NCBI GenBank assembly: GCA_003990765.1
Contig: RBNJ01000188.1
Location: 1-37,600 of the forward strand
Direction of reading: 5' to 3'
Source of the DNA: Jimgerdemannia flammicorona
Taxonomy: Eukaryota
Length of the DNA: 37,600 nucleotides
The position numbers and the translations under genes were made by a program. The notes under the pieces are model-generated. The model searched no databases and was not told the DNA's origin. It saw only the letters and a list, made by a program, of their open reading frames with translations. Each line of letters opens with the position of its first letter. Within the stretch, counting starts at the first letter, position 1. Below, in pieces: positions 1,307 through 28,800 of this stretch.

Positions 1307-1349
<43 letters not shown>

Positions 1350-1411
1350 TTATTAAAAATATAAATTTATTTTTTTTTTTTGGTCCTTGTCCTCCCCTCT
1401 CCAAAGCCATC

Positions 1412-2806: not shown

Positions 2807-2996
2807 GCGGCGAGATCGAGATTTGGGTGTTGCGGCGGGGGTTTGCTGGTGTGTGGATGTGTTTGCTGGTCGGGGGGCATTTGACGGGGTCGCTCTTAAA
2901 AATAGGTCATGTCTGCAATCACCTGACCGCCACGCTATGACATCAATTGCTCCCCACGTGCGCGTGTTGTTGAATCACCAGCCCCAGCCTCTCTCC
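2807..2996. promoter_or_regulatory. Compact putative bidirectional promoter between the F-box gene and POP4
   Basis: Only 190 bp separate two divergent ATGs (2806 minus, 2997 plus); contains an E-box CACGTG at 2955-2960 and an AT-rich TTAAAAATA near 2896-2904. Function inferred from geometry. Confidence 0.55.
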
Positions 2997-4242: not shown

Positions 4243-4515
4243 ACTGTTGTCAGGCGTAGGAAGGTGGGGGTGGGAGGGAATGGGTGACTCAGTTTTAGGG
4301 TTCATTGCTATGGTTTGCAAATTTTAATAGCTTCTTTCAAGGGGAGGGAGGCACGGAAAAATTGATGTAATGGATGGCAGTTTATGTGCTATTTTGCACC
4401 ATGATTCCTTAGTCTCTCGGAATGATGTGTGTGATCGCATCGGAACTTGGCCCAAATCGAGTTGTTTTCTTTTACCTTGGACAAAATGAATACGTGCCAC
4501 GCACAAGGGAGCATC

Positions 4516-6004: not shown

Positions 6005-6074
6005 CGGATACGGCAGTGGTTTGGGAAGGAGGTGTGGCGTAATTAGTTGAAGTCACGCGTCACTAGTTGATGTA

Positions 6075-6083
6075 GCACGTGAC
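6075..6083 (-). promoter_or_regulatory. GTCACGTG (Cbf1/USF-type bHLH) element upstream of the PTAR1-like gene
   Basis: gcacgtgac on plus = GTCACGTGC on minus, ~70 bp upstream of the proposed ATG at 6004. Motif match only. Confidence 0.35.
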
Positions 6084-7764
6084 ATAAATCTGGCAAATGA
6101 AAAGTACCTTATGGCCTATCTGGATTGGTATATACCTTTTTAAAAAATTTCATCTCATATGTTCAGCATGCCAAGCAGTGGAGCGCGAAACTGATGGTAA
6201 TGCGTGTGTGTAGAGCATTAAATTTTTTATTGAGAGTAAACCCTGCACATCCGATTGGGATATGTTTTTACGATGAAGCCAAGTGACCAACACACTGTGA
6301 AAAACGGGGCAGAATAGATCCAGCCACGACAGCTCATTGTTGGTGGCGAGCACGCAGAGAAGAAACAAAAATGCACCTTGTACTCGGCAGGACGATATCA
6401 TGCTGCCCCTTCTTCGGGTTTGCGGTATTGGGTCCTCGTACTGTGTGAGAAGTGGGATGGACAAGTTCAGTCGCCACAGCCCATAATTTGAACACGGTCT
6501 CTCGTTGTGACGGTAAGGTAACGTAGCTTGGGGTATTAATGTTACATGCAGTGGTTGTTCGGGTCACGACGGTAGCGAGATACGACAAATGTCGTGTGGC
6601 TTCACATGGTAGGAAGACTCGTGATGGTGCTGTTCCGAGGTTGGATTGGGTTGGCGAAATAGCTCGTGGGAATACGGCAATACCTTGTACTATACAGTAA
6701 GACACACCACATGCTGTTATACACATGGTTGACCAGAGAAACATTCCGTACCTTACTCATTTCGTTGCAATCGTGCTGTCCGTGCTTTGTAATGCTGTTT
6801 ACAGATGACATCGAGTTCGCTGGTTGAGAACTTGCCTCGTAGAACGTCAAATGGTAGTCGTGGTAATGCTTATGGCTATGCTACTTTTGTAGAGGCCAGC
6901 GATCAATCAGCAACAATCCAAATAGCCAGAAAATATGCAACGAATGAGATATCTATGATATTTCTCATGGCGATCCAGTAATCGACTTATCGGAGACGAG
7001 TTTCCTCTTGTTGGCATTCGCCGAGGGAACCCGTTTGATGAAGACTCCGAAAAGATCGATCTACACTATCTTCCAACAGCAGGGGCAACCCTTGTGTAAA
7101 CAAATCCTCGGCACGTCAGTGGTTTGAGAAAGTAGCGGCACCCTTCCGCGGAAGAAGCCCTAAATTGATTTCCGTTATTTCAGTTACCATATCCATCGTC
7201 GGAAGGGTACTCTCGTTGCTGGCAACCTATTTCATCGGAGGGCGCACAACTTATGAAAGTGAGTTACCTCTTATGTCACGCTACATACCCATATACCACT
7301 CATCACTGCCCAAACATCAAAGCGTGCCTTCAGCGATGCCATCCATCCTCTATCTTTGACATCGCTCTCATCGCAACTGAATAATCAAAGATAAGAAACG
7401 TTCGAACTAAATATACACTGTACGTATGTGGTCGTCATTCTGTTGAACTCACGGGGAAAATATTTGTCAACTTTCGTTTTTTGTGAGGCAGAGAACAATA
7501 CTTTAATTGTGTTCCCCGCCCGACTAATAACCACAAACTCAATGGATTCTAGATTTTGTACACAAACGCGGCAAGCGACAGGACGAGGGCTTGTGAACCC
7601 CGAAACTTAGGCTTGTTTTTATTTCTGTAATGTATGCAAATCCTAATTACCGAAGCGTACAATTCGCCTCCTCAAAGAAAAATAATAACTCTATGAACCC
7701 CAGATCTGAAGTACTTGAGCCTAGATCGAAATGATATTAACCGGACGTAGTACGCAATTACTTG

Positions 7765-8067
7765 CTAGTACAAAGGATGTTTTCCGTATCGTCTTACATA
7801 ACAGTGCTTGCCATCCCGTCGCGCATAACCGGAAAGCGCCATATGGTTTGTAATGTGTTCCTCATCAAAAAAAGCAATGGTGTATTTGCCTAACCCCATT
7901 TTATAACCCTTTTCCGTGGCAATTCCTCCGTTAAGAACGTCAACTGACATATCACAAATTGCCCAGTGAAGAATTGGGGTCTCCTCATCACTGCTTTCTT
8001 TTTCGATTGAGTCTTCAATGGAAATTTTCCTCGTATTTTCCAACCGAACTTCTTGCTTCGATGCCAT
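7765..8067 (-). CDS. Small hypothetical protein, 100 aa
   Basis: ATG-to-TAG ORF with protein-like composition (acidic N-terminus, then ILHWAICDMSVDVLNGG...YTIAFFDEEH); divergent from the kinase gene. No family recognised. Confidence 0.35.
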   Translation of the reverse strand: MASKQEVRLENTRKISIEDSIEKESSDEETPILHWAICDMSVDVLNGGIATEKGYKMGLGKYTIAFFDEEHITNHMALSGYARRDGKHCYVRRYGKHPLY

Positions 8068-8474
8068 TTATCTCTTCTTCCGAGGCGGTTCTCTTCACGA
8101 ACACCTTTTGGTTACAATAAAGAGAAAGAAAGAAAAAGTCGACGCTATTTATTATTCACGGCCGGATGTTTCCGACCACCTTCATATTCAGCCAATGTAA
8201 TTAGCATTGTGGGAAAGAAAAAAAAAAGACTGCTGATGTGACAGAAGAGTCGATCTATTCATCTCCTGTGAATATCGATTGATCTTTTCCCATTCATTGT
8301 GTAACGTTGCAGTGAGTTGACCCTGTGGCTGTCATGCGACAAATGCACTCGAGACGTATTTATGTAAGCACATAACCTCCCGGCTAAATATTTTTATAAG
8401 CATTTGCATTTGGGAGCGTTCCCCTCCAATGACTAATTTCATATGCATGTAAAGCTATTGCTCTTTCCAATACC

Positions 8475-10849
8475 ATGAATGAATTCTATGCTTATAAGGT
8501 TACCGCCCTCACAAGCCCACAGTCCATTGTCCAAACTTCCATCATTCACAAGGAAGAAGATAAGGTCCGCCCCGGAATTCCTGCGAGGGAGTCGTTCTGC
8601 GATGGCACAACGTTTTCAGAGGATGAGCAGAAGGTCACTTCGTCAAAAACGGCAATGGAACTTTACAACGCCCGCCAACTCGCCACAGCAATACTCAACC
8701 AGGGCTGCCAAGCACGAATACAAGCCAACAAAAACAACTTTCCTGGAAACGAACAACAGCTCAAAGCTTTCTTGAATGACGCCAAGATTTCGGATGAATT
8801 GGCAATGTATCTCACCTGGATTCCGTTCGAACGGTTCGACAGCATTAACGTGGTCTCGAGCGGAGAACACTGGACATTCCTCCGTGGTACCATTTCTAGT
8901 GAAAACCGTTGGGGTTTCGCTTGTCCTCGCCACAACGACATGCCGGAGAGTTGGAAGGAGACCAACAGGCGCTGCGGTGATATTCACTATGATTTCAATG
9001 AACAAAGAAAGTACACGATGATGGCCTGTAATAAGAGGGATGCTGAAATGTTCAAAAAACAGGTGCGTCCTTTGTTTCTGTCCTGTTTAAGCTCGTTTTA
9101 CCCCGAAAATTTCTCAATCCTCTTTGTTTTACCCACAGGTTATATTTTCGACACTTCTTTCGGCCTTCAACAATGCATATGACACGATGGCACCAATTGG
9201 CTTCACTCGACGGAACGAACAAGAGCTACCCTACATCGTCTTGGATTTCACCGAGGTTGGAAACTTTGCGCGGCAGATCGAACACAACAAAGGACGATCT
9301 TGGTCCGATGTATGGAGATATGCAGTTTTCCTTGCAAGCGGGTTGAGAGATTTCCACAGTCTCGGAGCTATTCATGGAAATCTCCATCCGGGAGCCCTCG
9401 CTGTGGCAGGGGAAAAATGTTTGCCGTACTTGGTGAACTTTGGTCTCGGCCATCATATAGATCAGGAACCAATGTCTTCTGCAGAATTTCCAGCCAGTAA
9501 TTGCTTCAGCGCGAACTACCTTCCTCCAGAATTCTTCATCTCCAAGCAGCCCTCGCAAGCTTCGGACGTTTATTGCCTGGGTGCTCTGCTATGGCAGCTT
9601 GTTACAACTGTGCCACCTCGAGGAAGCGTCAAAACCATTCAACGTACCGACGGATTGCGCGACGATCTTATTCCTAGAGTACCAAAAGCTTACGAGAACA
9701 TTTGCCACAGTTGTTGGAAAGTTAATCCACAGGAGCGGCCTGAGGCTCAGCAGGTTGTCGACCAACTCCTTGCAGCTGAAATTGAGATCAGGGTTGCAAA
9801 ATGTATGTCCCCACAGACAATGCCATTCGTTACTGAAAGGCGGGCAGATGCACGGATTTCAGGAATGCCGAAAGGTATGGCGAATGTTACTAGTTTAGTC
9901 ATGGTTAGTCCAGAAGACAGAGTTGGTTTCAAAACACTCATGACATGCATTTATATTTTTTTAATCTGTCAAAAACGAAACCTTGGATGTGGTTAAAACC
10001 GCAGACGTGATTCAAACCGCGGATGTGATTGAAACCGATGAAGAACTTTTCTCGAGGTGGAATTTCACGATATACATACATTCGTATTCGAGCTGTAATG
10101 AAACCTTGCTTATCGGCGATTTCTTCTCTGTGCCCTGTACTTTTGTAATATAGATTGCGTACAATGTCGAAGGAGGAATTCGGAACGTAGGTCGTCATTT
10201 ATTTGTTTATTGCGTCCTGTTTCTCCTATAACATTTTGCTTAATTTGAATACCCAAATTGTCAGGCTTGCGAGTAACGATCAACCACAGGCACAGCGGTA
10301 TATGAGATACTTGGCCAAGAGACAGGCTGAAATCGACGAAGAAACAAAAGAACTGGATAAACTCGAACGGCAAATGCTCCTACTTACCAGGAAGGTAATT
10401 GGAGTCGTTGGCAATTCTGGTTCATGATAGTAACGGTTCGTTCGCTAAAACACTTTAATAATTTCACGCAGACCTACCCTTGGAAATGGCTCCGGCGGGC
10501 GCTGAGATGCGGTGAATATGCAAAAAACTATCCTCGAACACCAGCTCAAGCCGAAGCTTTCCTGAACGAATGGCCGACCAATCCAGTGTCTGAAGACAGA
10601 ATGGAACTGGAACGAAGAGAATTACCAACGCCATCGGAGCCCGAAAACGAACCGGAACTGGAGCGAAGAGATTTTCCGACTCCGTCAAAGAAGCCCCAAA
10701 AACCCAACTGGCACAAGCCCGGAAAGCTGGATTCCACTAAGGCCAGTATGGCCAAGAGAACCAAATATTTTGTTTATCATGACTTCTGGCCGAGAAACAA
10801 AACCAATGCACCCGTGGTTAAATTCTTCTCACGTAAGAGAAAATCTTAA
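8475..10849 (+). CDS. TKL-like protein-kinase-fold protein, probable pseudokinase, ~638 aa, 6 exons: 8475-9062, 9139-9874, 10005-10056, 10154-10186, 10265-10394, 10472-10849
   Basis: YLTWIPFERF lead-in typical of Mucoromycota/Glomeromycotina expanded TKL kinases; C-lobe motifs LASGLRDFHSLGAIHGNLHPG, NFGLG, YLPPE, SDVYCLGALLWQL, CWKVNPQERP. Five GT..AG introns link four ORF-track fragments in frame (1917 nt). Exons 3-4 are less certain (weak GTGGAA donor). Confidence 0.8.
10604..10687 (+). repeat. Duplicated coding segment with 51-bp period (ELERRELPTPS / ELERRDFPTPS)
   Basis: gaactggaacgaagagaattaccaacgccatc versus gaactggagcgaagagattttccgactccgtc. Confidence 0.75.
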
Positions 10850-11683
10850 CATGATCCTCTGCGGTTTACTTTGTTTTATTTTATTTTTGCCACTTTTCTA
10901 GTGCGACTTGCATATGCGGAAAAACCTCGCCGACTATTTTTTCATCTCTTTTGCAGTTCCTCCGATTTTAAAACTTTATATGGAAAAAACGCATGCTTCG
11001 TATGCAAATTTTATTTTCTATGATCCGTTGATATCTCCACAACGGTATGCTCATTTTCAATTCTCTATGCTGACTAGCGCCGTATGTATGGCCATCCTTC
11101 TCTATGCCTTTATGTAAACGGAACAAGTAATACCCTGCCCTAGCTCATCACATCGATATATGTATATGTATTATTATGGAGTCCTCGATTTTTAACTGCC
11201 TACATCTTATGATAAGACCAAATTCGCCAGAATGCTATCTGCATATACCCCTCCAATCATACCCTCCCGATAACAAGGTTAAATATTCAAGCGTCAAAGA
11301 TCGGTAGTACAGCGTCTACAAATGGATATGGTGTGACAAAAGTCATTCTGTCAACTGTAATCACGCCCTTCCTCTACCGCTCTACTTGAACCTCCTTGGT
11401 TACTACGTGCATCGTCGAGGGACCTCACCGATCACCGATTTTTGCACAGGATATCAAACTCCGGGAAGCATACTCATTTCTTGTGTAGCCGTTTGTCTCG
11501 CAAACAGTATTTATTTGTAAGTACGTTGTTGGCCTTTAGCAATGCGCCTGAATATACGTGTCATTTATCACAACCGGAGTATTCAAATTCGAGCAGTACG
11601 AAAATGACATGAGTTATTGAGATATATATATATCGCTCACAGCCTTCATTTACCATTTTCTATTCTGTGTGAAAAGTTCCAAC

Positions 11684-12654
11684 ATGAGCCATTCTCCTCG
11701 ACATATCGAAGAGGCCGTACCAGCCGTGACGATTGACGACTTCGATAATCACAACCCTAGGGCACAAGATGAATCCATAGCTCGCAATACTCAAACACAA
11801 GTGTGGTTGAACGAATCACGAGAAGTTAACAAGGTGTAGTATCTTATTATGTTCCAATATGTTTGTCTCCAACGACTCAGAATTAACACGTCTTGATAAT
11901 TCAAATTCGAAAATAGATCGCGTATCGAATCTGGATATTCTACTCCGTCCTTCTGTTCAGTGTGTTGATCGGCAGTCTTCGTTTTACCTTTCAGGAAATT
12001 TTCGGCCAGATGCCTTGGGTATCCTTCATCTTGAACAATTGTGTTCACTTTGCAGCCCATGTATGGAGCATGAGCAAGAATCGTGAAGAAATGGAAAGTA
12101 TTGTTAGAGAGTCATCCACTGCCCTGTGGTATGGCATTTATAGCATTTCTCTAAAGGATTGGAAATTCGAAAAAATTATCCTACTTGTATTCGTAATCTT
12201 AGCGATAGTATCCCTCGCGCTACTGTGGCTCCCATTCGCAATTTTGGGTGGGTTTTTTATGTATATATGGCACTTGCTGACTGTCATACGAGGAATTCAC
12301 AGTATAGCAGGTTTGGATGAGATTATTGTCGAGAAAGAAGTGCCAAGAATACCCCGAGGAAGATCGGCTATTCCGACCCCTATACGCCCGTCCGGCGATA
12401 CAAACACTCTTCCTGCGGCTTCCATATCAATATCTCAAGTTGGCCATCCCACCGCTGTCGCCGCGACCACCGCTACTAATAACCTCACCGCCGCGTCACA
12501 ACGTCGCCGAGTATCTACAAACACAGATACAATGTCATCGCCTCATGTCTCCTCTCCCGGGACTGAGAATATACCCTTACGTCCTTTGGCATCTGAGCCC
12601 ATGATAGCCTCTCATAATGAACAAGTCAGAAGACAACCACAAGAATCCTCGTGA
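11684..12654 (+). CDS. Hypothetical multi-pass membrane protein, ~295 aa, 2 exons: 11684-11833, 11917-12654
   Basis: ATG at 11684 downstream of a TA-rich box (~11622-11633); GT..AG intron joins in phase 0; 3-4 hydrophobic segments (IWIFYSVLLFSVLIG, IILLVFVILAIVSLALLWLPFAILGGFFMYIWHLL) and a Pro/Ser/Thr-rich tail. Confidence 0.7.
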
Positions 12655-13075
12655 GGACAGGAGCAAAGAAATCCATAGTTTCTATTCGCGCAGCTCCTCT
12701 TTACCAATTTTTTTTCTTCATTTTTGTATATATATACGAACCCGCTGTACCCAATCGCTTAATGAAAAAATAAAAATAAACCAAAAAATTAAAATGAGAA
12801 ATTTATCCATATCAATCAAGATATTTCCTTTCTTCAATGGTTATGCAATCACATAGTTATTAGTTTGTTAGTACTATTTACAGTTATTGGTTGAGTATAG
12901 TGAATATTATTTAATCTTTTTTAAATATTCTATTTTAATATTATAGAATAATTTATAATATTGAGCAGAAAATAAAAGTAATATATATATCTAACAAATG
13001 AGTAGAAATTGAATCTTATAAAATTTTGAAAAATATATTATTATATTGATAATTATGATTTACCACTAGTATATT

Positions 13076-13120: not shown

Positions 13121-13669
13121 AAAAAAAGATTGATCACTATTATTAAAATTATTATTATGATTATAAATAATAATAATAATAATAAATTTTCTTTATAATA
13201 AATTGATTTCAAATATATATATATATATTAATCACAGCTTAATGTGTTACTTGATAGAAGACTTATCTTGATTCTTCCATATAGTAGTAGTTGTTGTAGT
13301 ATTTGTACACCATAATAGCGAAGAGCGGTAGGGCAGCAGTTTTTATTGATAACGCAAACAACGCGCTTTTACGCGTAATTGATGACATCGATACAAAGCC
13401 ACAAATGATGACGTAAAACATATATTGAGTTGATCAATGAGATATCCTGAATAACCCAACTGATAAGAGGAAATGCAGATAACATCAAGAAATATAAAGC
13501 CTTGTATCCAGAGGCTTTTGCAGTCTGAAAAGTCACGTGTGAGGAATAGAATGGCGTTGTACTGGGAGAATGTGCTAAAAAGGTCAAGAGATTACGTAAA
13601 AGTTGCTAAACCCTAATAAGGAGCATTTGCCGAGTGCATTGTTCAAATTTTGGGCTTTGTCATTTAATC

Positions 13670-14120
13670 GTTTCCAGTCGTAGAGCTTCAATCATCGAGG
13701 TCGCCTGCTCTATCAACGTCGCGGAAGCCAGATAAATATATCCTACTCCCACTTAAATCGTTTCCGTTGCCATCAGTGCCGCCTAAGGTGAGCGTATGCC
13801 GTCCCTTTAATATACCTGAAAATCCGTTTAACGGCAGTCCGATGCGAATTGTTGTAGCACAATGAATACTGCGCCGCTTGTTGACAGCAAAAGAAATATC
13901 TGGTCGCGTCTAGCATGAGATACATAAGGCTTCCGATTGCCTGTAAGGGAGATTTGTTGTAGAGGTCGTTACGGAGGTTGCTTTTCTTAGCTAGACGTAT
14001 CCGCCAGCGTAGCTGAAGGGTTGCAATCCATCATATTGAATCATTTGAGTATAGCTTGAATATATCGCAGCTGCGAAATATCCCAACAGCAGTTTTGTAG
14101 GTAGAGTTCTATTTCAATTT
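13670..14120 (-). mobile_element. Ty1/copia pol remnant A (RT C-terminus to start of RNase H), frameshifted, CpG-retaining
   Basis: Minus strand reads ISQLRYIQAILK*FNMMDCNPSAT...QAIGSLMYLML/TRPDISFAVNK...HRTAVKRIFRYIKGT...LSGFRDVDRAGDLDD*SSTTG, matching copia GSLMYL..TRPDI..AV, AVKRI.RYLKGT and GY.DADWAGD.DDR.STTG. Confidence 0.88.
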
Positions 14121-15304: not shown

Positions 15305-15413
15305 TTACCATAAGACTTATTTATTTAGTATATTATTAAAATTTAAATTCTAGAAGAGCTTTGATAAGTGAATCTATAATAATATACTCTATAGAGATAT
15401 ATTCTAAGTATAT
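15305..15413 (-). mobile_element. Ty1/copia remnant B, 3' part (end of RNase H), separated from its 5' part by the gypsy-type insertion
   Basis: YLEYISIEYIIIDSLIKALLEFKF corresponds to copia I.LEYIPT..M.AD.LTKAL...KF with transitions; continues the frame broken at ~21780. Confidence 0.75.
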
Positions 15414-16904
15414 TGTAAGAGGGTTACTTATTAGAGTAACTATTACATAGTTCTGGAAGAGTTTTCTGGAAGTTCTGGATATTCTAAAAGACTGTTTTCC
15501 TAAGGTTAAGATCAATTTCATATAGAGTATATCCTCTATGCTTATTGATTTTAAGATTGGATTGACATCTCAACTAAAGTTCTTTTTTGGACTAGTTCTA
15601 GATGTTTAGGATTTTCTATATTTCAGAAAGTTCAAGAAACTAAGACCAGCTTAGTTGAATTGGTGTATTGCTGCAGACAATACCCAATTAGAAAATTTCA
15701 TAATGAGATTAGGAGTGAGACCTAATGGGGAGCAGATTTACTTAAGAGTGGTTTGTGGGTTATTAAATAGATTTATTCACTATTCATGATATTGCTATAT
15801 TAGAAGTAGTTGTGTGAAGGGATATTATAGGGAAGTATTCAGAAATGTTCTTGTATGTTCAAGTCTGAGATTTTGAGATCTGGGGAAGGGGGTATTTATA
15901 CTAGTAAGGGGCTATCTAGACTATGCTAGATATAGATATAGCACTTAGTACCTTACTGAGTTGGAATATAGTCATATAGTATAAATATGATCTGACATGT
16001 CAAGAGATTATCTGACTGCTGAGTCAGTTTACAGTTATGTTGTATAAGGCTAATCTAACTATACTATGACTGCTAAGCTATTTATAGGTTTAGATGCTGT
16101 CTGGGTAGTCTTCAATGATATCACTATTGATGATATCATCTCTGGCAAAGTCTGAGTAGTTTTCTGACTTCTGACATTATTAGTTTCTAAGGTATCATCA
16201 CTTCTATCTCTTACAAGATTAAGACTGTCCTTGGTAGTAGTGATTGTATAAGAATAACAGGTCTTGGTTCTCTTTTTTTTTGGACTTCTGATATATTTGC
16301 AAGGACTCATCATTCTTGTCTAGAGCAAGGGCTCCCAATGTCATGGCTGGGGGTTCAAACCTCTCAGAAATGATATTTTTTATAATTCAAGGCAATTTTT
16401 AGTAGTAATATCTGTTATATGGATAGCTTGAGATTAGTTTCAACAATGTCAGCTTTCTTGAGTTTAGATGAAGTATCTGTCACTCTCTAATGGAGGTGAT
16501 ACAGATAGAGTGAACAGAGTTGTTCAAATGTGTTTTACTTCTGCTAAGTAATGAAGTCTTGTATAGTTGTGGTATATTTTGGTCTTGAGTTGATAAGTAT
16601 AGTTCATGAACCTTTGATAGATGAGATAGAGTTCTTCTTGTCTTAGTTTGAGTTTGGTACTTTCAGTTTCCTTTTATAATAGTACAGTATACCAAACTAG
16701 TTATAGAGATTCAGAGTCAGTCTTATGGTTATAGTACTTCTTCTGGTATTCTTGTATCTTAGTGGTAGGTTCTCATGCTTGCTGGTATATTTTGTATAAC
16801 CAGATGATCTCTTCAGTAACTTGTTTTATAGTCTTGCATGTGGTTTTCAAATTGGTTCTGAGGATGACATGCAATTTTAGTGACTTGGAGGTTGTGCACT
16901 TATA
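15414..16904 (-). repeat. 3' LTR (1491 bp)
   Basis: Colinear with 20285-21774; minus-strand TATAAATA at 15893-15900 and AATAAA at 15772-15777. Confidence 0.93.
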
Positions 16905-16918
16905 ACTTCCCCCTTCTT
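16905..16918 (-). other. Polypurine tract
   Basis: Minus strand AAGAAGGGGGAAGT directly abuts the 3' LTR. Confidence 0.85.
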
Positions 16919-16989
16919 AGCTTTCAATATTCTTGTTGGGGCCTTTTAATTTAATCTAGTGTTGTTGTACTATTTGGATGATTCTTGTG

Positions 16990-17075
16990 GCTGTATTTGT
17001 TGAGGATTTGTTCAACTTTATATTCCTCTTGGTCATTAATAATAATAGGTGCAGGTGGTTCTGTAGTTTGGTTCA
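16990..17075 (-). pseudogene. N-terminal part of an integrase-associated chromodomain
   Basis: TEPPAPIIINDQEEYKVEQILNK matches the chromovirus pattern PPPP..IDGEEEYEVE.IL.; the YLVKW core is not seen. Confidence 0.7.
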
Positions 17076-17299
17076 GAAATGTGTCTTGGACTTTCTAGAG
17101 TAAGGGTCTAACATGACTGTTGACTTTGGAAAAGTCTTCTTCAGAGTTGTCAGTTTCTCCTTTGAATGGGCAGATGGAGATAGCAAAGAGAGGACATTTC
17201 TTGGCCAATTTCTTAAGCTGTAGCTTATTGATATGGGTGATCTTTGGTCTAGGGTCACTAGTGCTGAGTGGGTCCTTTTCACCTTATAGTTTAAAGTTA

Positions 17300-17645
17300 T
17301 GGCATCCTTTCTTGATGGTCAGAGAATAGTTTATCCAATTGATCATGAGGTTCTCTTGTTTCAACCATGGGTTTCCAAGGATGATTTTATTGTCAGAAAG
17401 TAGTATGATCTGGAGGGTAATATGTACTCGATAGTTACCAATTCAAATGGGTAGATTGCAGACTTCCTTGCTAATGACATGGGAGGTTCCATCAGCTGTG
17501 GCAACAGCTTGAGTTTGTTGGACTAGAGAGGTGAAGACCTTGAGTCTGTTGACTGTTTCTTCATTAATAAAGTTGCCTGAGGCACCACTATCTATCATAA
17601 TCTTAATAGGTGCTTGGTTGACAAAAGCTTGAAGTATAAGCAGTT
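17300..17645 (-). pseudogene. Retropepsin-type aspartic protease domain
   Basis: IKIMIDSGASGNFINEETV...ATADGT...IILGNPWLKQENLMINW (D-S-G catalytic motif and ILG.PWL). Confidence 0.9.
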
Positions 17646-17862
17646 TGTCTGATTCAATAGTAATGATTTTAGTTATAAGAGCTTTCCTTCTGTTGGTTCT
17701 TCTTTAAGCTAGTTTATTAATACAAGAGAAGCAATAATTGATCATTTGGGAAGAGTACATTCTAATACCATGGGGGTATTGGCCACTTGGTATATATCTG
17801 TCTTCGATTTTCTTATAGAATTATTCTTCTTTATTTATGATAGGTTGGGCTGGGGCCTTGTT

Positions 17863-18275
17863 TGATGAGCCAAATCCTTTGGATCCTCAGATGGTGAGTA
17901 GTAGTTCAGGGACTTCCTTGACTATCAGAGTTGACTCGATTTTCTCAAATAGGATCTGGGCAATATAGAAACCAGTGGAGATTTTGAAGAGTATCCAACT
18001 ATGGTTTTGGATAAGGACAATAATTTTGCCTGTATAATCTTTGTCAATGACTCCTCCTTCTACTGAGAGTCCTTTCAATACTAGACTGCTGTAACAGCAT
18101 ATTCTTCTAACATGTCCTTCAGGGATTTGGATGCTGATTCCTGTATAGACTTGCTTGACTTTTCAGTTGGAGACTATAGCTTCTTCAGCTGCATACAGGT
18201 CATATCTAGCTGCTTTTTGACTTCCTTTCATTGGGGTCTTAGCAGTTTGTCTTAACTTGATAAAGTCCAGTATTC
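17863..18275 (-). pseudogene. Trimeric-type dUTPase domain within the retroelement polyprotein
   Basis: All five dUTPase motifs in order: AARYDLY (I), YSSL from RSSL (II), GGVIDKDYTG (III), IAQIL (IV), *GSKGFGSS (V); departures from consensus are explicable by transitions. Confidence 0.92.
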
Positions 18276-18339
18276 TGGTAATCAGGTTATTGAGGTAGTA
18301 CAAAGTAGTAATAGTTGCTCATATTGCTGTTCGGGGTTT

Positions 18340-20270
18340 TCAGTTGGGGCAGGCACTGGCTATGTGTCCTGTTTTTTGTAATAGAAGTATACTCTACTTC
18401 TTCAAAGTTCATTTCTTTTTCCTTTAGTGAGTTTTTTAAAGATACTCAGCTGAGTGGGTTCATGATTTCTAGGTGTCCATGAGGTGGATGTTAAGAGAGC
18501 TTGGGATACTTCATACTTGGGTTCTTCTTTCTTGGTCTAAGTCTTTTCCTTGTTATTGAATTGTCTTTAGGGCAGAATTGGTCTAGCTGTTAGAATTCAC
18601 TTGACCATAGTCTTTATTCTTATCAGATACTATTATTAGTGATTATAACTAACTGAGCATCCTTGTTCTCGGATTTTTCTTATAAGTTATTCAGATAGTA
18701 TATCAAATAAATGATCTGCTCTTGTACCATTTCATGCTTCATTATTGGCAATATATCCTAGGCCAATAGTGTTCAGGAGTGACTTGAGTTTTGTACAGAA
18801 GGTTTCAAATTCTTCTTTGTTATATATATTAAATTTGAGATTGTAGAGTTTTACTCATTCAGCAATTATGGTTTTGCTGTGGTATTGAGCAATCATGAGT
18901 TGTTTTAGTCCAGGAGCTGCAGGATGAGCTCTATATCCTGGGGCATTGTTTGCTGCATTCTGAGCAACTACTATAGGTCAGATATCCCATGTGAGGGGTT
19001 TTTCAGGAAGGGTTTGTCACTATTCTTTAGCAGGTCCTTGGAAGAATGTAACAACTCAGCAGACATAGGCTGTAGTTATAGCAAAGAGTTGTTCCAGAGT
19101 ATGGTCTTGATTGTTTATCAAAAGGCAGTTAGCAACTCACTCATTAGTCTATTGATTGGCTTCAAAGTTGGTATCAACTACACTAATGAAGCTTTGGACT
19201 TCTTGTACAATACCATTGAAGATAGGTAGGCTCAGATTTTTGGTAGGTCAGATTTGTTTAGCTAGGGCAGTAATGGTTGCTGCCATTATGGCTACCTGGG
19301 CTATAAGATCTAGAATCTGTTGGTTTGCCATGTTGTTTACTGGAGACAGTTGGACTACAGGTAGTGGTATTATTGATACTACTTGAGGTACTAGTGAGGG
19401 TGTCCTTTGAGTCTATGTAAGTTGCTAGAGTAGTAGTTGTGGGTCTGGAGTGAGGGCTCAATAGATAGTTGTCTATTGCTGTATAGGTGTATTCTGTCCT
19501 GATAGAGGTACATCTCCTTTGGTGGTATATCCAGGATCAAATTTACTGAGATACTCCTCCTCCTCTTCAGTTTGGTCCCTGTGTAATTGAGTTTGCTCAA
19601 TATCAAAGTAAACAGAATCAGTTGTATATCTGATTTTGGATGGACTTAATTCAAAGTCAAGTTCTGGTTTGATATTGGTTTCGGGTTCAGATAGAGTTGT
19701 AGCAGAGTCTGCTTCAGATTCAGGGTCAGGTTGTTGACAAAGAGTTTCTCTTACTTCTTCTTTAAGAATATGGTAGGCCTTGCTATTCTGGAATTGGTAG
19801 TATAATACAGTCTTAGTCCTGGTATGGTGAAAGTCAGTAGAGTTGAGCCACTTGGCTACAGAGGCTTGGGCTTCATGAGAAACTAAGGCTAGAAATACTG
19901 CTGCTGATTGTCCTAGATCACTCAGATTTGTGGAGCTGATAAAACTCTTATTGAGAAGAGTAAAGAAGGCTTCTATAAGACCTTCTTCATCTTGACTTAC
20001 AAGGTGTAGAGTAAGGAGTTCAGTAAATAGAGTTTTGCCTATCTGCTGATTTAATCAGAGTACTTCTTTCTTTGAATGAAGTTTGTCCCACTTATTGCAG
20101 GTGTGGAGATCAAATTGTCCTTATATATCAGATTCAATTCTCTCCAGATTGTCAGATGGTTCAGAATAAATTTCAGTTCAGAGGTTAGGCTTTATACCAA
20201 CTTGTAGAAATTCTCAAAGGAGTTTGTAGTAGGATGAGAAAGCATCTTGAAGCAGAATTGGATTGTAAGT
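18340..20270 (-). pseudogene. gag with long N-terminal extension and C-terminal CCHC zinc knuckle
   Basis: Frame with transition-type stops containing LPIFNG..EVQSFI, FQGPAKE**QTL (G.A..WW), and YFYYKK/GHIASACP (CxxCx4Hx4C with TGC>TAC changes and a 1-nt slip) at ~18346-18392. Confidence 0.8.
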
Positions 20271-20284
20271 CACTGCTATCAAGT
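20271..20284 (-). other. Putative primer-binding site (initiator tRNA-Met-like)
   Basis: Three nt after the 5' LTR the minus strand reads TGATAGCAGTG, one G>A from TGGTAGCAG, which is complementary to the 3' end of many eukaryotic initiator tRNA-Met. Confidence 0.5.
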
Positions 20285-21774
20285 TGTAAGAGGGTTACTT
20301 ATTAGGATAACCATTATGTAGTTCTGGAAGAATTTTCTGGAAGTTCTGGATATTCTGGAAGACTATTTTCTTAAGATTAAGATCAATTTTATATGGAGTA
20401 TATCCTCTATACTTATTGATTTTAAGATTGAGTTGATATCTCAACCAAAGTCCTTTTTCAGACTAGTTCTAGATGTTTAGGATTTTTCATATTTCGGAAA
20501 GTTTAAGAAACTAAGACCAGCTTAGTTGAATTGGTGTATTATTGCAGACAATACCCAATTAGGAAATTTCATAATAGGGTTAGGAGTGGGATCTAATAGA
20601 GAGTGGATTTACTCAAAAGTGGTTTGTGGGTTATTAAATAGGTTTATTCACTATTTATAATATTACTATACTAGGAGTAGTTATATGAAGAGATATTGTG
20701 GGAAAGTATTTAGGAATGTTCTTATGTATTCAAGTCTGAGATTCTGAGGTCTGGAGAGGGGGTATTTATACTAGTAAGGGGCTATCTGAACTATACTAGA
20801 TATGGATGTAGTACTTAGTACCTTGCTGAGTTGGAATGCAGTCATATAGTATAAGTGTGATCTGACATATCAAGAGATCATCTGACTGCTGAGTCAGTTC
20901 ACAGTTATGTCATATAAGGCTAATCTAACTATACTATGACTGTTAAGCTATTTATAGGTTTAGACACTGTCTAGATAGTCTTTGATGATATTACCATTAA
21001 TAACATTATCTCTAACAAAGTGTAAGCAGTTTTCTGACTTCTGATATCATCAGTTTCTAAGGTATCGTCACTTCTATCTCTTATAAGATTAAGACTGTTC
21101 TTGGTAGTAGTGGTTATATAAGGATAATAGGTCTTGGTTCTCTTTTTTTTTGGACTTCTGGTATATTTATAAGGACTGGCCATTCTTGTCTAGGGTGAGA
21201 GCTTCCAATGTTGTGGCTGGGGGTTTGAACCTTTTGGAAATAATATTTTCTGTAATCCAAGGCAATTTCTAGTAGTAATATCTATCATATACATGGCTTG
21301 AGATTGGTTTCAATGATGTTGGCTTTCTTGAGTTCAGATGAAACATCTGTCACTCTCTAATAGAGGTGATACAGATAGAGTAAACAGAGTTATTCAAATA
21401 CATTTTACTTCTATTAAGTAATGAGATCTTGTATAGTTGTAGTGTATTTTGGTCTTGAGTTGATAAGTGCAGTTCATAAACCTTTAATAGATGAGATAGG
21501 GTTCTTTTTGTCTCAGTTTGAGTTTGGTACTTTTGGGTTTCTTTTGTAATAGTATAGTATACCAAACTAGTTATAGAGATTCAGAGTTGGTCTTATGGTT
21601 ATAGTACTTCTTCTGGTATTCTTGTGTCTTGGTGGTAGGTTCTCATACTTGCTGGCATATTTTGTGTAACCAGATGATCTCTTTGATAACTTGTTTTGTA
21701 GTCTTGTATATGGTTTCTAAATTGGTTCTGAGAATGATATGCAATTTTGGTAGCTTGGAGATTATATACTTATA
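20285..21774 (-). repeat. 5' LTR (1490 bp)
   Basis: Colinear with 15414-16904; minus-strand TATAAATA at 20763-20770 and AATAAA at 20643-20648. Confidence 0.93.
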
Positions 21775-21779
21775 TGTAT

Positions 21780-22770
21780 ATATAGTTCTATTCTCTATAT
21801 ACTTTCTTATATAATAATATTATACATCAATGTGTTTAGTTTTATTATAATAAATAGAGTTCTTTGTCATAGTAATCATAAATTAATTATTCTGATAAAG
21901 TACTATTTCTAATTAATCTAAGTTTCTTTAATAACTAATATAGTTAAATAATTTTCTTTATTACTATAGATAATACTTGATACTATACTTATATAGATGA
22001 TATATATTATTACTGAACTCTATTTATATATATATTTACTATAAAACAACTCTTTTATTATTTAATTAGAAGAAGTATACTCAGTCATAGATTAGTGATT
22101 ATTTAAGTCTCTGGTCTAATTAGCATTATATATACTGAATAGTTATATGTCATTCTTATTATTGTTACTATTACTCCTGTTCAATTTACTAAGAGTAAGT
22201 ATATAATATACTATTTCTTTGATATATCTAAAAATCTACTTAATAGTACTTTAATATATATAAATTATCATAGTATAATGAGTATTATGCTATCTTATTT
22301 ATAGTATATAAAATATTAGACATTATTTCTAATATAAGATATATGAGAGAACTAACTACTTATTGATAGAAAATATTAGTATAGTTTTTCTCTAGCATAG
22401 TATCAGACTTCTTTAACTTTATTAAAATTTCTATAAGAGTATTTACTGGCTTATATTTGCTTATATTAAATTGTTTGAGAATAGTATAGATATAAGTTAA
22501 CTGTAAGAGATATATGATATATATGTTCTTATTATATATAAGAGATATTCTCAAAAGAAAAGATATATCACCTATGTTAATTATCTTGAATTCTTTATAT
22601 AGAGCTTCTTTAACTCTATTAAACTTACTTTTTATCATAACAATAATGATATCATTCTATCTATATACTGTGATACATATAATATAAAATAGAAATAAGA
22701 ATTAGGGAAATAGATATTTGATCACAGTATTTGAATCTAATTTTTAAATATATTATAGTCTTATAAATAG
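21780..22770 (-). mobile_element. Ty1/copia remnant B, 5' part (RT to RNase H), extremely AT-enriched
   Basis: ITVYID (YVDD region), FNRVKEALYKEFKIINIGDISFLLRI...LLQLTYIYTILKQFNISKYKPVNT, and KTKHIDV*YYYIRKYIEN (copia TKHID..YH.IRE). Confidence 0.85.
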
Positions 22771-22869: not shown

Positions 22870-25800
22870 AACACCTTTCTCTGCTATAATTCACATTATA
22901 CAAACTTCTAATAATATTTTTAATATAGTTTTTTGAAGTAAAGATGATCATAATATAGCAACCAATGAGATATTAGAGAAGTATACTGGGCAGAATAGCT
23001 TTAGTACATTTAACTAGCAGTATGTAGGAGGAGTCATGACTTGGAGGAGAGTATGAGAAGCTTACTGGCTAGAGAATATAGATGAGAATAAGATAGTACT
23101 GAGAAGTAGAGAACTAGAAGAGTAAGCTTTCCTGATAAGATCAAGATTAGGCACTTATTTATGGATCTGGAGACCTAGCTACAGGGTGATAAAGAGAAGA
23201 AGAGGAATACAGAGTCTGGTAGAGAGGCTCATGAGAGTAGTAGTGATAGAGCTGAAGAAGTTGTAGCTAGAGAAAGTGAGACTACTGATGGAGGAGAGAC
23301 TACTAATTTAGAAAAAAAATCCAGATGTGACAGCTAATGACAGAGCTGGGCAGAGGTAGGGCATGAGGCCTAGAGATCTGACTGATAGTATAATAGACCT
23401 GATAGTAGTACTGTTACTCAAGAAATCAGTATCTAAATTCACTATTACATTATATTTTCAGAGTCTAGTAATTATGACAAGAATGGTTCTGAGGCTGCTG
23501 ACTTAGAATATAAAAGAGGCTACTTTAGTGAAGTTCTTGAAGAGTCTGGAGAGAGTTAAGATGGGGTTTGAGGAGAAAGAGTTGATGCTAGAGGTATTGA
23601 AGAAAGGTGTAGTAGTAGAAGAGGTAGTAATCTCTATAGCTTAGTACTTATGCTGGAACTCTAGAATGGTACAGTTGGTAGTAGCAAATGTACCAACAGT
23701 GAAGAAGGAGGTGGTTAGAGAGCTGATTGTTGATGTTATCAAGGAGTATAATGATGTAGTAGATGTGGGCTTCTGGGTCTAGAAGGGTACAGAGTTCAGG
23801 ACTAGTGATATAGATATCAGGGTGAGGCCAGCAGATAAGGAGAATACTGAAAAGGAGAGAGATTGACCAGTAGTGCTCAAGTAGAGACTAGTAGAGTATA
23901 AGATCTCAAGGATCAAGAGGATATCAGAGGAGGAGGAGAACTTGCTGGAGGTATTAGAGAACTTGACTGAGGCTGTTAAGAAGAGAAGACTAGTATAAAA
24001 GAAGTATGAGGCCAAGAGAGTGATAGAGATAGTGAATGGTAAGTAAGTAAGATTGGACTGAGCTGCCTAGAAAAGAGTACAGAGATAGCAGTATCAGAAG
24101 AATTTACTAGTAAAGTTGAGAGAGCAGCCAGAGAGAGAGAAGACTGCTGATAGAGTCAGATCAAGAGCCAGTACTTGGGCAGAGAAAGAGGAGATAGTGG
24201 TAAAGGGGATCTGAGCAGAAGGGGGGGACCTGGGGCAGGGGGTGGTGGTTGAGAATGAGGTAATAGTAGAGGTGATACAAGTTCATTATGAGGTATCTAT
24301 AGTAGATAAGGAGAATGATGAGCTATAGGATATACTGGAAGAGAACTAAGATAAGTCAGAGAGAGTGGATGCTGATAGTGGTCAAGAGGCTGAAGGGCAG
24401 AAAGTCAGCCAAGGAGTAGATGAGACTCTAGAAGAGAAGAAGTAGCTATAGATGGTATTGATGAATGTTGTGATAGATGAGTTAGGTAAGGTAGATTTTA
24501 GAGTAATTAGCAAGCACCACTGGAGTGAGATACTGTGGAAAGAGAAAGTGGTTCAGAAGCTTCATAATAAACTACTGGCAGATCTGTTGGAGGCAGAGAA
24601 GTATGAGATAGATGATGCCAGAGAGATAGAGTTCCTAACTATTACAAATAAGCAGGTAGTATATCTGTGGAAATCTAGGAAGGAGTTGGAGAAGTGGTAA
24701 GTAGTGTGTAAGAACTATTGATCTGATATAAAGGTAGTGGATGAAGTAGACTGTCAGGAGATCTTGAAAGTACTAAATGTATAGCAGAGAAAGGCAGATA
24801 AGCTTGAGACAGAGTAAAATTTGGATGTTGCTAGTAATATAGTAAGTATGGAATTATAGAATAAGTACTTATATACTCTCTAAACATTATTCAATATAAA
24901 TAGTACAACTAGAATCTTCTCTTTGAATATCAATGGTCTGAGAGATATGATAAGATATCAAAATATGTATCTTCAGCTGATTGAAGGGACTGGATGCAGA
25001 TCTGTTTTTATTACAGAATATAGGATATAATACTGGCTTAGATATACAAGATTGGACAAGAGAATGGAGAGGTGAAGTGGTATAACAGAATCAGGTAGGC
25101 ATTTTGATTAGGAAGGATAAGAGGAATATTAGAGATATTGAACATTGGGGGGACAGAGTGGTGTGGAGAGTATGGAGGAGGCCTGGCTAGAGCCTCTTGA
25201 CTGTTAGGTCATATTATTGCTCAGTAGAAAGAGAGAAGTATGTGGAGTAGATAAGGAGACCAAGAGATGCCCATATTATGGTAGATAAGAGGATTGACTG
25301 TCTGGGGGGTGACTTTAACATGATATACAATAGACTGCTGAACAGAATGGATGAGAGAAGGGAGATGATGAGCAGGAGTAGAGAGATAGAGAACTGAGAG
25401 AAGATTGAGAGACTGAGCTCACTAGTAGATATAGGGTGACTTGGGTAAGGAGATCATCAGGTCTACACTCATTAGATAGTAGGGCTGAGATTGAAAATTG
25501 ACTGGGTCTTGACTGCTGAGTGCTGGAGAGCAGATGTCTGGAGTTTGATTGAGATAGTATAGTACCTATGGTCTGACCACTAAGGTTTGCTGAGCTGTGA
25601 AAGGTTTGGGAGAAGTGGGGAGGAGTCTGGACATTAGCACTTAAATTCTTTATTATTGAGGAATCATACCTTATGGAATGAATAAGTAGTACTAGGATTA
25701 TTTGCTGGAGATATACTGAGATAAGATAGGGAGAGGGAGGGGAGTCCAAAGGAAGAGTCATATATAGTAGACCTTGTAGAGATTGGAAGAGCTACTGGAG

Positions 25801-28800
25801 AGATGGGCTGAATTAGTGAGGAAGGAGACTAGAGGGCTCAATAGATCCAGTAGGAGGTAGAAGAACTAAAGAGGCTGCTTAGATAGGAGAAAGAACTATA
25901 GGTGAAGAGAATGGTAGTATGATTGCAATGGCAGGATCTGGAGAAGGAGGAGCAATCTATGAAGTTTCTGTCAAGGATGCTTCAGGTAAGAAGAATGAGG
26001 CAGCAGTAGAAAGGAGTATTAGATAAGACAGATGATATAGTGGTCAGAACACTGAAGATCTTAGGCCTACTGTGATCCTATTAGAGGTAGTTATAGAGTG
26101 AGGAAGAGGGAAGTAAAGATGTACTAGGTATTAAATAGTAGTTGGAGAGTTGGCACCCAGACCCAGCAGTGGGCCTAGGTAAACTTAAAGTCTCTATATA
26201 GGGGAAGAAGATCTGTTGGATTTTGGTAATGATAAATATAGAGATAGCTCTAAGGGAAGATAGATTGTCTTGAGATTTCTGGAAGCAGATAGCTGGTATA
26301 GAGGTTATACTAGAGAAGATGATGTAGATGTGTGATAAGATAATTAACTCTAAGATCTGGATTGGAGATCAGTGCTTGAGACTTATAGCTCTATTATATA
26401 AGAATAAGAGAAGGAGGGAGGATTGGAAGAACTGGAGACCAATCATACTTCTGAATATAGATTATAAGTTAGTGATGAAGATTTTGATGATCAAGTTGTA
26501 AGGGGTAGCTCAGCAGATATTAGGGGTAGAGCAGTGGGGCTTTATTGGAGGTTATTTGATATGAGATGAGACAGCTTGAGTCTATGATATTATTGAAGGA
26601 GTACATACTACCAGAGTTAATAGTTGCTTAGTTTTTCTGGACCAAGAGAAGACTTATGATAGGATCTAGTATGTATAGCTAGAGAGAGTACTAAAGTAAA
26701 TAGGGGTCTCCCCAGAGTTTAGGAGATTGTTGATTAGTTTGTTGGAAGAGAGTCAGGCAGTAATTATGGTAAATAGACATAGGGAGGAGTTATTTCCTCT
26801 AAGCAGAGAAGTGCTACAAGAGGATCCTCTATTGCTGATCCTTTATGCTCTCTTAGTGGAGCTCTTGTTAGACAGGATATAGTATAAGATAGAGGGGTTG
26901 AATATTCTAGGAGTAAACTAGAAGATGGGGGTTTTTGCTGATAATACAGTGGTTAGGCTTAACTCTGTGAAGAATGTGGCAGTACTGAAGAGTGCTGTGG
27001 AATAATATGAGAAGTGCTCAGATATGAAGCTCAACTAGCATAAGTAAGACTCTGGTCTTAGATAAAGAAATAGTAGAAGGGAATATAATTGGAATAGTTA
27101 TCCCAGCAGAAGAGGTAGTCTGATATCTGGAAATTTATTTTTTATATAAATATAGTTCTCTGCTACCTTAAGGATGATGGAAACAGCAGCTGATCAAATG
27201 AGGAGATGCTTTATTGCAATAGAGCAGCCAATATATCTCTCTGGCAGAAAGAGTGATAGTGTTGAATATATATTAACTGTTTTTTTTTTTTTTTTTTTTT
27301 TTCTATACTCATTTATTCAGAACACAGTTATAAAGCAAACAGCAGAAAAACATCTCTCAGATTTTCTGACAAGAAAGTAAGTGGGGTCAGACCCTAAATA
27401 AAGTAGCCTCAGATAACCTGACATCTAACTTTAGTAAGGCCAAGGTGGCTAGGGCCTAGTTCTTTCTACCCTGAGTTACTCTCACTCTCCTCTCCTTATT
27501 AATAACAATACCTCTACCAAGGCCACAACTAGTCTCCTCATATAAATAATATATACAATTGTGAAGCAAAAATAAAACAGCATGTAGGCCTGAGAAATTC
27601 CCAACAATGAGTTACTCTACTCTACCTTGGCTGTCCAGTATCAACCTATATACTTAATGAATAGATCTGCTATCCAACTACTACTCTCTCTGTCTAGCTC
27701 TGAGTCAGAAGTCACTATCTGACTTATAACACCAGTATCTTAAATAGTACTACCATCATACCTGGTTTGGCCCCAAAGGGCCACTAGATACAATCCCAGT
27801 ATCTTGAGTATCCCTGCAGTACTGTACTTAGCCAACTGGCTCCCCTCTTCTCAAAGCAGTAAAGTAGTCACTCTGCTGATCTTCTTGCTGATCATTACAC
27901 TATCACTGGCCAATTGCCTGGTCTGATCATTACTGCCATCTTGTATTACACTATCTGACATCTACCAATCACTAGTTACTATTATATTATATATTGAAAT
28001 CACCTCATCTGCCTTGGCCAATCATCAGCTATATCTTCCAAAATCCTCTAAGTGCTTTCCAAAATCTCCCAATATACCTCTATGCCTTGAAGATATAGTA
28101 AGAGTTCTCTCAGAATGAAAGAAAGCCTAAGGGTCTAACCCATGTCTCCCAGCCTATCAGAGTATATCAGTGAGTTGAATGCTTACTATTAAGCTAGCTA
28201 TGCCATTGGAAAAAAGACTCCTTCTCTTCTTGAGTAGTTGCCAGTAACCCCCAGAGCCTACATCATACTATCTGATCTATGAAATAATGGAAACCTTGAA
28301 TTCTTAAAAACTGTAGCCTTGAGGTTAGGGTAACTTGACACTATTGGACTTCTCTTCTCTTACTGCTTCTGACACACCCAATCTTGAGGCACTGATGGCC
28401 CTTCTTCCTCTGCACCATAGGGATCCAATTTCTACCCAGACCTTTTGACCAGTATGGTTTAAGAGAAAGAAGTTCTATATTGACTGTCTAAGCTGTAGTA
28501 TTTGATATATATATATCACTTGGATTTTCTGATATAGGTGATCAAGAGGCTGCTAAAGATGATCAGGTCATAGATATGAGTAGAATAGTAGAGTTAAATA
28601 GGCTGGGAGATATTGATACTACTAGTAGACAGAGGAGGACTGGGCCTGGTAGATTTTATAAAGTATCTATACTACTTAAGAGTATGGTGGCTAAAGCAAG
28701 CAAGTGAATTGAGAGGTCAAGAGTGAGCACTCCTTATGCAGAGGGTGTGGAAGATTTAGTTCTCTCTCTGGAGCATAACTGGTAACCTGCTTTCTCTGGT

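Follow-up and report, generated by a model that had tools for sequence, protein, structure and literature searches.

How does a long terminal repeat (LTR) retrotransposon come to carry Gag, a dUTPase, and a protease with no reverse transcriptase (RT), RNase H, or integrase (IN) beside them, and does such an element belong to a lineage of its own? The question is raised by an LTR element of 6.4 kb on the minus strand, at positions 15414–21774 of a 37,600-nt stretch of DNA from the fungus Jimgerdemannia flammicorona (assembly GCA_003990765.1, contig RBNJ01000188.1, positions 1–37,600), which is called the window here. An earlier inspection of the letters, the sequence-only reading, had seen in it a possibly undescribed chromovirus lineage that captured a dUTPase, present as a non-autonomous derivative that supplies capsid, dUTPase, and protease and borrows RT and integrase in trans. 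The follow-up analysis points elsewhere: the element is most probably a dead, hypermutated, and internally deleted copy of a Ty3/gypsy chromovirus-type family with a dUTPase, in a fungus of the Endogonales (Mucoromycota). The intact polyprotein of this family would consist of Gag, a CCHC zinc knuckle, the dUTPase, a CPH...CxxC stretch, an aspartic protease, RT, RNase H, integrase, and a chromodomain. In the window copy, one in-frame deletion would have removed RT, RNase H, and the integrase core, and decay by C-to-T and G-to-A transitions would have followed.

Coding content of the element

The features of the element are listed below from its 5′ to its 3′ side; P-numbers denote protein representatives from a homologue search, L063 is a metagenomic locus and X1 a soil run.

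21775–21779, minus strand: upstream copy (ATACA) of the candidate target site duplication (TSD), matching the downstream copy at 4 of 5 positions, with a transition as the mismatch
21774–20285, minus strand: 5′ LTR of 1490 nt, a direct repeat of 15414–16904, with the termini TATAAG...CTTACA
20271–20283, minus strand: candidate primer-binding site (PBS) of 13 nt, 1 base past the 5′ LTR
19476–20054, minus strand: stop-free stretch of 193 codons in the gag frame, covered by family contigs in run X1
19406–18639, minus strand: capsid-like Gag core, matched by tblastn to the Gag part of P0009 (E 5e-23)
18389–18349, minus strand: CCHC zinc knuckle (CX2CX4HX4C), aligned with P0003, P0011, and P0030
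18243–17863, minus strand: decayed dUTPase (Pfam PF00692, E 1.9e-25, profile positions 3–128 of 129)
17820–17722, minus strand: CPH...MY...CxxC linker, here YPH...CFSC, between dUTPase and protease
17655–17308, minus strand: aspartic protease (RVP_2, E 4.6e-12; gag-asp_proteas, E 1.2e-10), with DSG at 17592–17584
17307–17080, minus strand: pre-RT linker, 67.5% identical to P0002 over 117 aa and 77% identical in DNA to L063
17079–17072, minus strand: deletion junction, now TTTCTGAA, in frame, with an 8-nt microhomology
17071–16919, minus strand: integrase C-terminal tail and chromodomain start, the last 50 codons before the polypurine tract
16918–16906, minus strand: polypurine tract (PPT) AAGAAGGGGGAAG, 1 base ahead of the 3′ LTR
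16904–15414, minus strand: 3′ LTR of 1491 nt, a direct repeat of the 5′ LTR
15409–15413, minus strand: downstream copy (ATATA) of the candidate TSD, in an AT-rich flank

The domain matches agree with the sequence-only reading in finding an LTR element with Gag, knuckle, dUTPase, and protease and with no RT, RNase H, or integrase. Three RT-bearing gypsy polyproteins were used as queries (P0147, P0148, and P0151, the latter two also with integrase), and at E <= 0.01 none of them had any other match in the window, which consequently lacks RT, RNase H, and the integrase core. What remains of the region beyond RT is the tail, which aligns to residues 1400–1446 of the Ustilago polyprotein P0151 (47 residues, tblastn E 0.002). 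Pfam places SH3_Tf2-1 at 1347–1408 and Chromo at 1431–1482 of this protein, so that the chromodomain start proposed earlier comes down to about 17 residues aligned to the start of the Chromo match. The frame is disrupted near 16982–16994, where contigs from the soil runs have loose ends (at 16982 and 16994), and the loose ends of the relatives read on into a chromodomain-like strand.

Within Gag, the segment 19124–18660 aligns to P0011 with 45.5% identity (tblastn E 3e-34), and the gag frame holds 17 stops in 322 codons (19337–18372). The zinc knuckle has its first two cysteines changed to tyrosine and is legible only across the loss of 1 nt in an A-run near 18371–18377, which shifts the frame. 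Every homologous segment between the second half of the knuckle and about 16990 was matched in the same frame (tblastn frame -2); the single frame that had been read from the knuckle onward holds for this part and fails inside the knuckle itself. The gag and pol parts appear to be out of frame here only through this lost nucleotide, and intact relatives would have a single polyprotein from Gag to the chromodomain.

The stop-free stretch of 193 codons upstream found no homologue in the protein search and no usable Atlas match. It probably extends Gag at the N-terminus in a lineage-specific way; P0009 and P0051 also have long N-terminal extensions. The stretch lacks a methionine and contains no stop despite 16 stop-prone codons, as against 17 stops in the 322 codons that follow. 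The chance of finding no stop in it was put at about 0.01–0.05, a rough and post hoc estimate.

The dUTPase was identified in Pfam scans of the window copy in which stops were read as X. Of the five motifs recognised earlier, GVIDxDY is retained, and several motif residues are changed relative to the aligned relatives: AGYDL of the relatives reads ARYDL in the window copy (motif 1, G to R), RSS reads CYSS and RIAQ reads YIAQ, each with loss of the arginine, and R-G-x-x-GFGS reads stop-GSKGFGS, with the arginine ahead of GFGS turned into a stop. A second stop lies inside the domain. The window dUTPase is a pseudogene of a true trimeric-type PF00692 member.

The linker between dUTPase and protease, noted previously as YPHG...CFSC, corresponds to a CPH...MY...CxxC stretch conserved in four relatives: the columns P, M, Y, C, and C are invariant across the window copy and P0003, P0005, P0008, and P0011. 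It has no match to any Pfam family. It may be a zinc-binding stretch or zinc knuckle. A similar cysteine-rich stretch occurs in P0009, upstream of the dUTPase of that protein. In the protease, the stop in LPI-stop-IG (17445–17443, minus strand) is also a stop in L063, a contig of 77% identity; this common lesion could have arisen in parallel at a hypermutable codon or have been inherited from a common ancestor. Two other identities were set aside: a retrovirus, on the absence of env and the gypsy type of Gag and protease, and a host DUT gene beside a transposon, on the position of the dUTPase in frame between knuckle and protease, an order that recurs in relatives.

Relatives and the deletion junction

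The homologue search (HMMER, 1.84 billion representatives) returned 14508 matches at E <= 0.001, the majority of them plain dUTPases; 13 reached E <= 1e-30. The closest relatives are short metagenomic fragments. P0030 is 80% identical and spans the end of the knuckle and the start of the dUTPase; P0002, with 66% identity, covers the end of the protease and the linker and then continues with FPKKLPKGLPPK, the usual lead-in to RT. The contig of P0002, L063 (1345 nt), is 77% identical to window positions 18223–17063 over 1170 nt and shows the order dUTPase, CPH...CxxC, protease, linker, and RT N-terminus, broken by stops and frameshifts. Among longer relatives, P0147 combines dUTPase, protease, RT, and RNase H in a single protein, and P0051 contains gag, knuckle, dUTPase, and protease. 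With the start of RT present in L063, and RT and RNase H in P0147, the window element is therefore placed in Ty3/gypsy by descent, as a deletion derivative.

A profile built from a 5-row alignment was used for scans of further loci. The scan of JGI metagenome contigs returned 10 loci; L063, which has the RT form, is the sole close one. Sixty-two loci on viral contigs match the dUTPase domain or little more; the two that were checked (L001 and L002) show a short, dUTPase-sized open reading frame (ORF) among small ORFs and no long polyprotein ORF, and were rejected as relatives.

The order of domains was surveyed by Pfam in 96 of the 150 best representatives, chosen for a length above that of a solitary dUTPase or for several matched stretches; of the other 54, nearly all have 137–251 aa and a single matched stretch. 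dUTPase followed by protease was found in 12 of the 96, protease followed by dUTPase in 11, chromodomain followed by dUTPase in two, RNase H followed by dUTPase in one, and a copia-type arrangement in one. Since this census reproduces the three dUTPase positions already published, the arrangement is not new. The proposal of a possibly undescribed lineage that captured a dUTPase finds no support, given the positions described in PMC2864245 and the many public polyproteins in which a protease follows a dUTPase. The two outcomes that the sequence-only reading had named as telling against itself, a domain order already catalogued for a fungal gypsy family and a sole RT-less copy, are largely what was found.

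Contigs of three soil runs (X1, X2, and X3), of which only one holds 11% of the words, were mapped onto the element. Contig pieces that matched it with at least 80% identity numbered 3863 in X1, 38 in X2, and seven in X3. The pieces from X1 comprise 360 at 99% identity or more, 980 at 95–99%, 1857 at 90–95%, and 666 below 90%; they cover 30 of 30 bins, and one alternative letter at one place is common to up to 20 contigs. Depth in X1, which is not copy number, amounts to 8.7 in the flank bin 21709–21900 vs. 166–1300 in 27 of the 28 element bins, with 84 in the outermost bin of the 5′ LTR. On the number of distinct variants, the element therefore belongs to a multi-copy family in the soil data.

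The same contigs bear on how RT was lost. Contigs of X2 and X3 part from the window at 17078 and continue with letters coding FPKKLPKGLPP, on the RT side, and one X1 contig also ends there. Two reads of X2 diverge at 17068, on the IN side, into letters coding ...ELFPN, part of the integrase tail, and between the window and these letters only transitions are seen over 18 nt. The octamer TTCCCAAA is present in both the RT-side and the IN-side loose ends, and L063 reads TTTCCCAA, followed by the start of RT. As both ends carry the octamer, the loss of RT, RNase H, and integrase is therefore attributed to one in-frame deletion. Its breakpoints would lie in two TTCCCAAA octamers, immediately upstream of RT and within the integrase tail, and the deleted part, estimated on P0148, amounts to about 865 codons or 2.6 kb. 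The deletion may have arisen by template switching during reverse transcription or by microhomology-mediated deletion after insertion.

No piece bridging 17068–17078 was listed among the contigs of the three soil runs, and no second copy with the same junction was found among these contigs and the 10 metagenome loci. In X1, each of the 10 contigs over 17116 shows a letter other than that of the window and is there no more than 39 letters from the end of its piece, so that the pieces end by 17078. Every relative that reaches the junction continues there with RT-side or IN-side sequence. Given a deleted copy of an RT-bearing family, the deletion is thus somewhat more likely to be private to the window copy than shared.

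These results also bear on the strongest rival explanation, a propagating non-autonomous subfamily in which the in-frame Gag-dUTPase-protease-chromodomain form was copied in trans and of which the window copy would be an old member. Such a history would fit a deletion that stays in frame and spares the LTRs, the candidate PBS, the PPT, and all of Gag; RT-bearing relatives able to act in trans exist, and Gag-only non-autonomous LTR elements are known in plants (as described in PMC4350172). However, an in-frame outcome has a one in three chance in any deletion, the window copy is itself dead, and the relatives speak for the RT form: the junction was seen once, the only close locus among the 10 has RT, and the X1 contigs over 17116 all have a non-window letter and end by 17078. 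A propagating subfamily is accordingly unlikely, and slightly less likely still is the specific claim that the RT-less form is a trans-mobilised Endogonales subfamily, an enzyme-carrying fungal counterpart of the plant TR-GAG elements. If it were true, the polyprotein could compete for the particles that full-length partners form, or contribute dUTPase and protease to them. The trans-mobilised family implied by the earlier reading is left unsupported, and the window copy, because of its in-frame stops and frameshifts, supplies neither capsid nor dUTPase nor protease.

Several results weigh against the reading of the element as a deleted copy of a chromovirus-type dUTPase family. Pfam Chromo is unmatched in three pieces of the window, and Pfam gives no gag domain match in the window copy. 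A search for a close full-length polyprotein yielded one weak match, the Ustilago polyprotein (E 1.5e-5), which is weak evidence. The dUTPase tree, which had been proposed along with the earlier reading and was built by a quick method from 66 rows with 4 of 63 inner branches starred, leaves the window dUTPase unplaced, on an end branch of 1.29 and in no starred set, and gives nothing firm on the origin of the dUTPase. Its starred branches point to at least two origins for the rows with dUTPase before protease; without a supported placement in it, the family assignment therefore rests on the similarity of Gag, linker, and protease. The imperfect TSD (4 of 5 positions, in AT-rich DNA) leaves a single insertion event unproven. 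Finally, contigs show presence and not absence, which makes the missing second copy of the junction weak evidence.

Decay, boundaries, and surroundings of the copy

The window copy contains 28 in-frame stops, 17 in the gag frame and 11 among the 496 codons of the pol frame, and at least two frameshifts. It is dead, non-coding, and immobile on its own. Eight pol-frame stops stand opposite a residue in P0030, P0002, or L063, four of them facing R and four Q, and are therefore of the transition type, in agreement with the sequence-only reading; a ninth is a stop in L063 too.

The LTRs enclose 3380 nt and are 87.3% identical, with 1303 same columns, 184 transitions, six transversions, and one indel; no further copy of the LTR or the internal part lies within the window. 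The mutated state is shared out evenly between the two LTRs (98 vs. 86). The decay of the LTRs has a CpA-biased spectrum resembling that of repeat-induced point mutation (RIP), in an Endogonales genome. Of the LTR-pair transitions, 125 of 184 lie at CpA/TpG, and differing sites make up 54% of CpA vs. 11% of CpT; plain CpG decay fits only 16 TG/CA double sites in the pair. The ratio of observed to expected CpG is about 1.0 in the genic positions 1–13000 of the window and 0.00–0.13 from 14000 to its end. RIP-like signatures are described as confined to ascomycetes (Badet and Croll, 2025, PMC12543289). They are not expected in the phylum of the host, and the transition-only, CpA-biased decay of the LTR pair may be a more interesting lead than the element itself.

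The boundaries had been called intact. The LTR pair and the PPT are confirmed, but the description is too strong for the TSD, which matches at 4 of 5 positions, and for the LTRs, both of which open with TA (TATAAG) instead of TG and close with CA. Assuming a change of TpG to TpA in both copies, the ancestral termini would have been the inverted pair TGTAAG/CTTACA. The TSD is weak evidence because of its single mismatch and flanks of about 20% G+C. The candidate PBS is reverse-complementary to the LTR-internal positions 21112–21100 at 11 of 13 places, both mismatches being transitions, and this pairing suggests Tf1-like self-priming rather than a tRNA primer. The LTR partner of the PBS (21100–21112, minus strand) lies about 60 nt downstream of a TATAAA. 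No tRNA gene is present in the window.

Could the two LTRs come from two neighbouring copies of the family that were merged by a large deletion or unequal recombination? Their divergence of 12.7%, the imperfect TSD in AT-rich flanks, and a surrounding region that is a nest of transposon remains would all suit such an event. The excess of transitions (184 vs. 6) is nevertheless as expected of one pair decaying in place, the even distribution of the mutated state points the same way, and the junction microhomology lies inside one continuous reading frame, so that a merger is very improbable. Weakest of all is an assembly artefact that hides a full-length locus, which is barely credible: high-copy repeats such as this element tend to collapse in assembly, but a microhomology of 8 nt does not suffice to mislead an assembler, and both flanks of the junction bear the window copy's own transition pattern.

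A single decayed insertion with an internal deletion remains the preferred reading, and its surroundings comprise a genic half and further transposon remains:

1412–2974, minus strand: F-box/LRR protein gene, in the genic half
4667–5527, minus strand: protein prenyltransferase alpha-subunit repeat exon of 286 aa, with 97% identity across 94% of its length to a protein of Jimgerdemannia flammicorona, which places the window in this species or a close relative
9091–9996, plus strand: protein kinase gene, in the genic half
About 13560–13700 and 22360–22656, minus strand: two copia-like RT fragments, recognised by eye
About 25400–28500 and 33000–36800, plus strand: two diverged non-LTR elements resembling long interspersed nuclear elements (LINE-like), with RT-like and endonuclease-like stretches recognised by eye in translations

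As both copia-like fragments cover the same region of RT, they are the remains of two copia elements and not of one split by the insertion. The LINE-like pair is about 66–69% identical over aligned stretches of 193–715 nt, with 229 transitions and 138 transversions, and is uninformative on the mutation spectrum.

Comparison with known systems

In the betaretroviruses mouse mammary tumor virus (MMTV) and Mason-Pfizer monkey virus (M-PMV), the dUTPase lies between nucleocapsid and protease, as it does here. Unlike these viruses, the window element lacks env and combines a gypsy-type Gag and protease with a putative chromodomain tail; furthermore, no gag-pro frameshift site is evident, the shift in the window being the mutational loss of 1 nt in the knuckle. 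Fungal chromoviruses have already been likened to the betaretroviral nucleocapsid-dUTPase-protease order (PMC2774666). For retroviral dUTPases, a dUTP-lowering role in non-dividing cells has been proposed (PMC2864245). By analogy, the dUTPase of intact relatives of the window element would be packaged in Gag-Pol, where it would hydrolyse dUTP near RT and limit uracil in the cDNA.

Other LTR elements share single traits with the window element. The bdelloid rotifer retrotransposons Juno, Vesta, and TelKA likewise carry a dUTPase in Pol; they are described as having it between protease and RT, with no chromodomain and in an animal host (PMC5408684). The plant TR-GAG elements have also kept LTRs and Gag and lost RT and integrase, and are described as shorter than 4 kb with one ORF for the GAG precursor (PMC4350172). 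In contrast, the window element measures 6.4 kb, still has dUTPase and protease, lacks any open frame, and is known from a single copy; with the stops in its Gag and a junction seen once in the data searched, it does not qualify as a TR-GAG-like family.

The closest counterparts are fungal. In chromoviruses of Postia placenta, the dUTPase is found at the N-terminus of Pol (PosPlaTy3-3), at its C-terminus (PosPlaTy3-4), or in the interval between protease and RT (PosPlaTy3-5), and earlier reports from Phanerochaete and Tuber are cited there together with a proposal of independent acquisitions (Novikova et al., 2010, PMC2864245). The window copy is consequently of little significance as a new kind of element: fungal dUTPase chromoviruses have been in print since 2008–2010, some of them with the dUTPase before the protease, and internally deleted LTR elements are commonplace. 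Our literature searches turned up no publication on dUTPase-carrying gypsy elements in Endogonales, the nearest being a transposon-linked enrichment of dUTPase and protease Pfams in Entomophthora muscae (bioRxiv 10.1101/2023.09.13.557621).

Like PosPlaTy3-3, the window element is a fungal Gypsy element, probably of the chromodomain type, with a dUTPase at the N-terminus of Pol, ahead of the protease (PMC2864245). Unlike PosPlaTy3-3 and its kin, the window copy lacks RT, RNase H, and integrase and has the CPH...CxxC stretch between dUTPase and protease. Compared by description only, it further differs from the elements of Postia placenta, Phanerochaete chrysosporium, and Tuber melanosporum, which belong to Basidiomycota and Ascomycota, in its Endogonales host. 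The locus thereby extends dUTPase-carrying gypsy elements to the Endogonales (Mucoromycota), shows for this lineage a conserved CPH...CxxC motif between dUTPase and protease, and provides a clear case in which an 8-nt microhomology marks an in-frame deletion.

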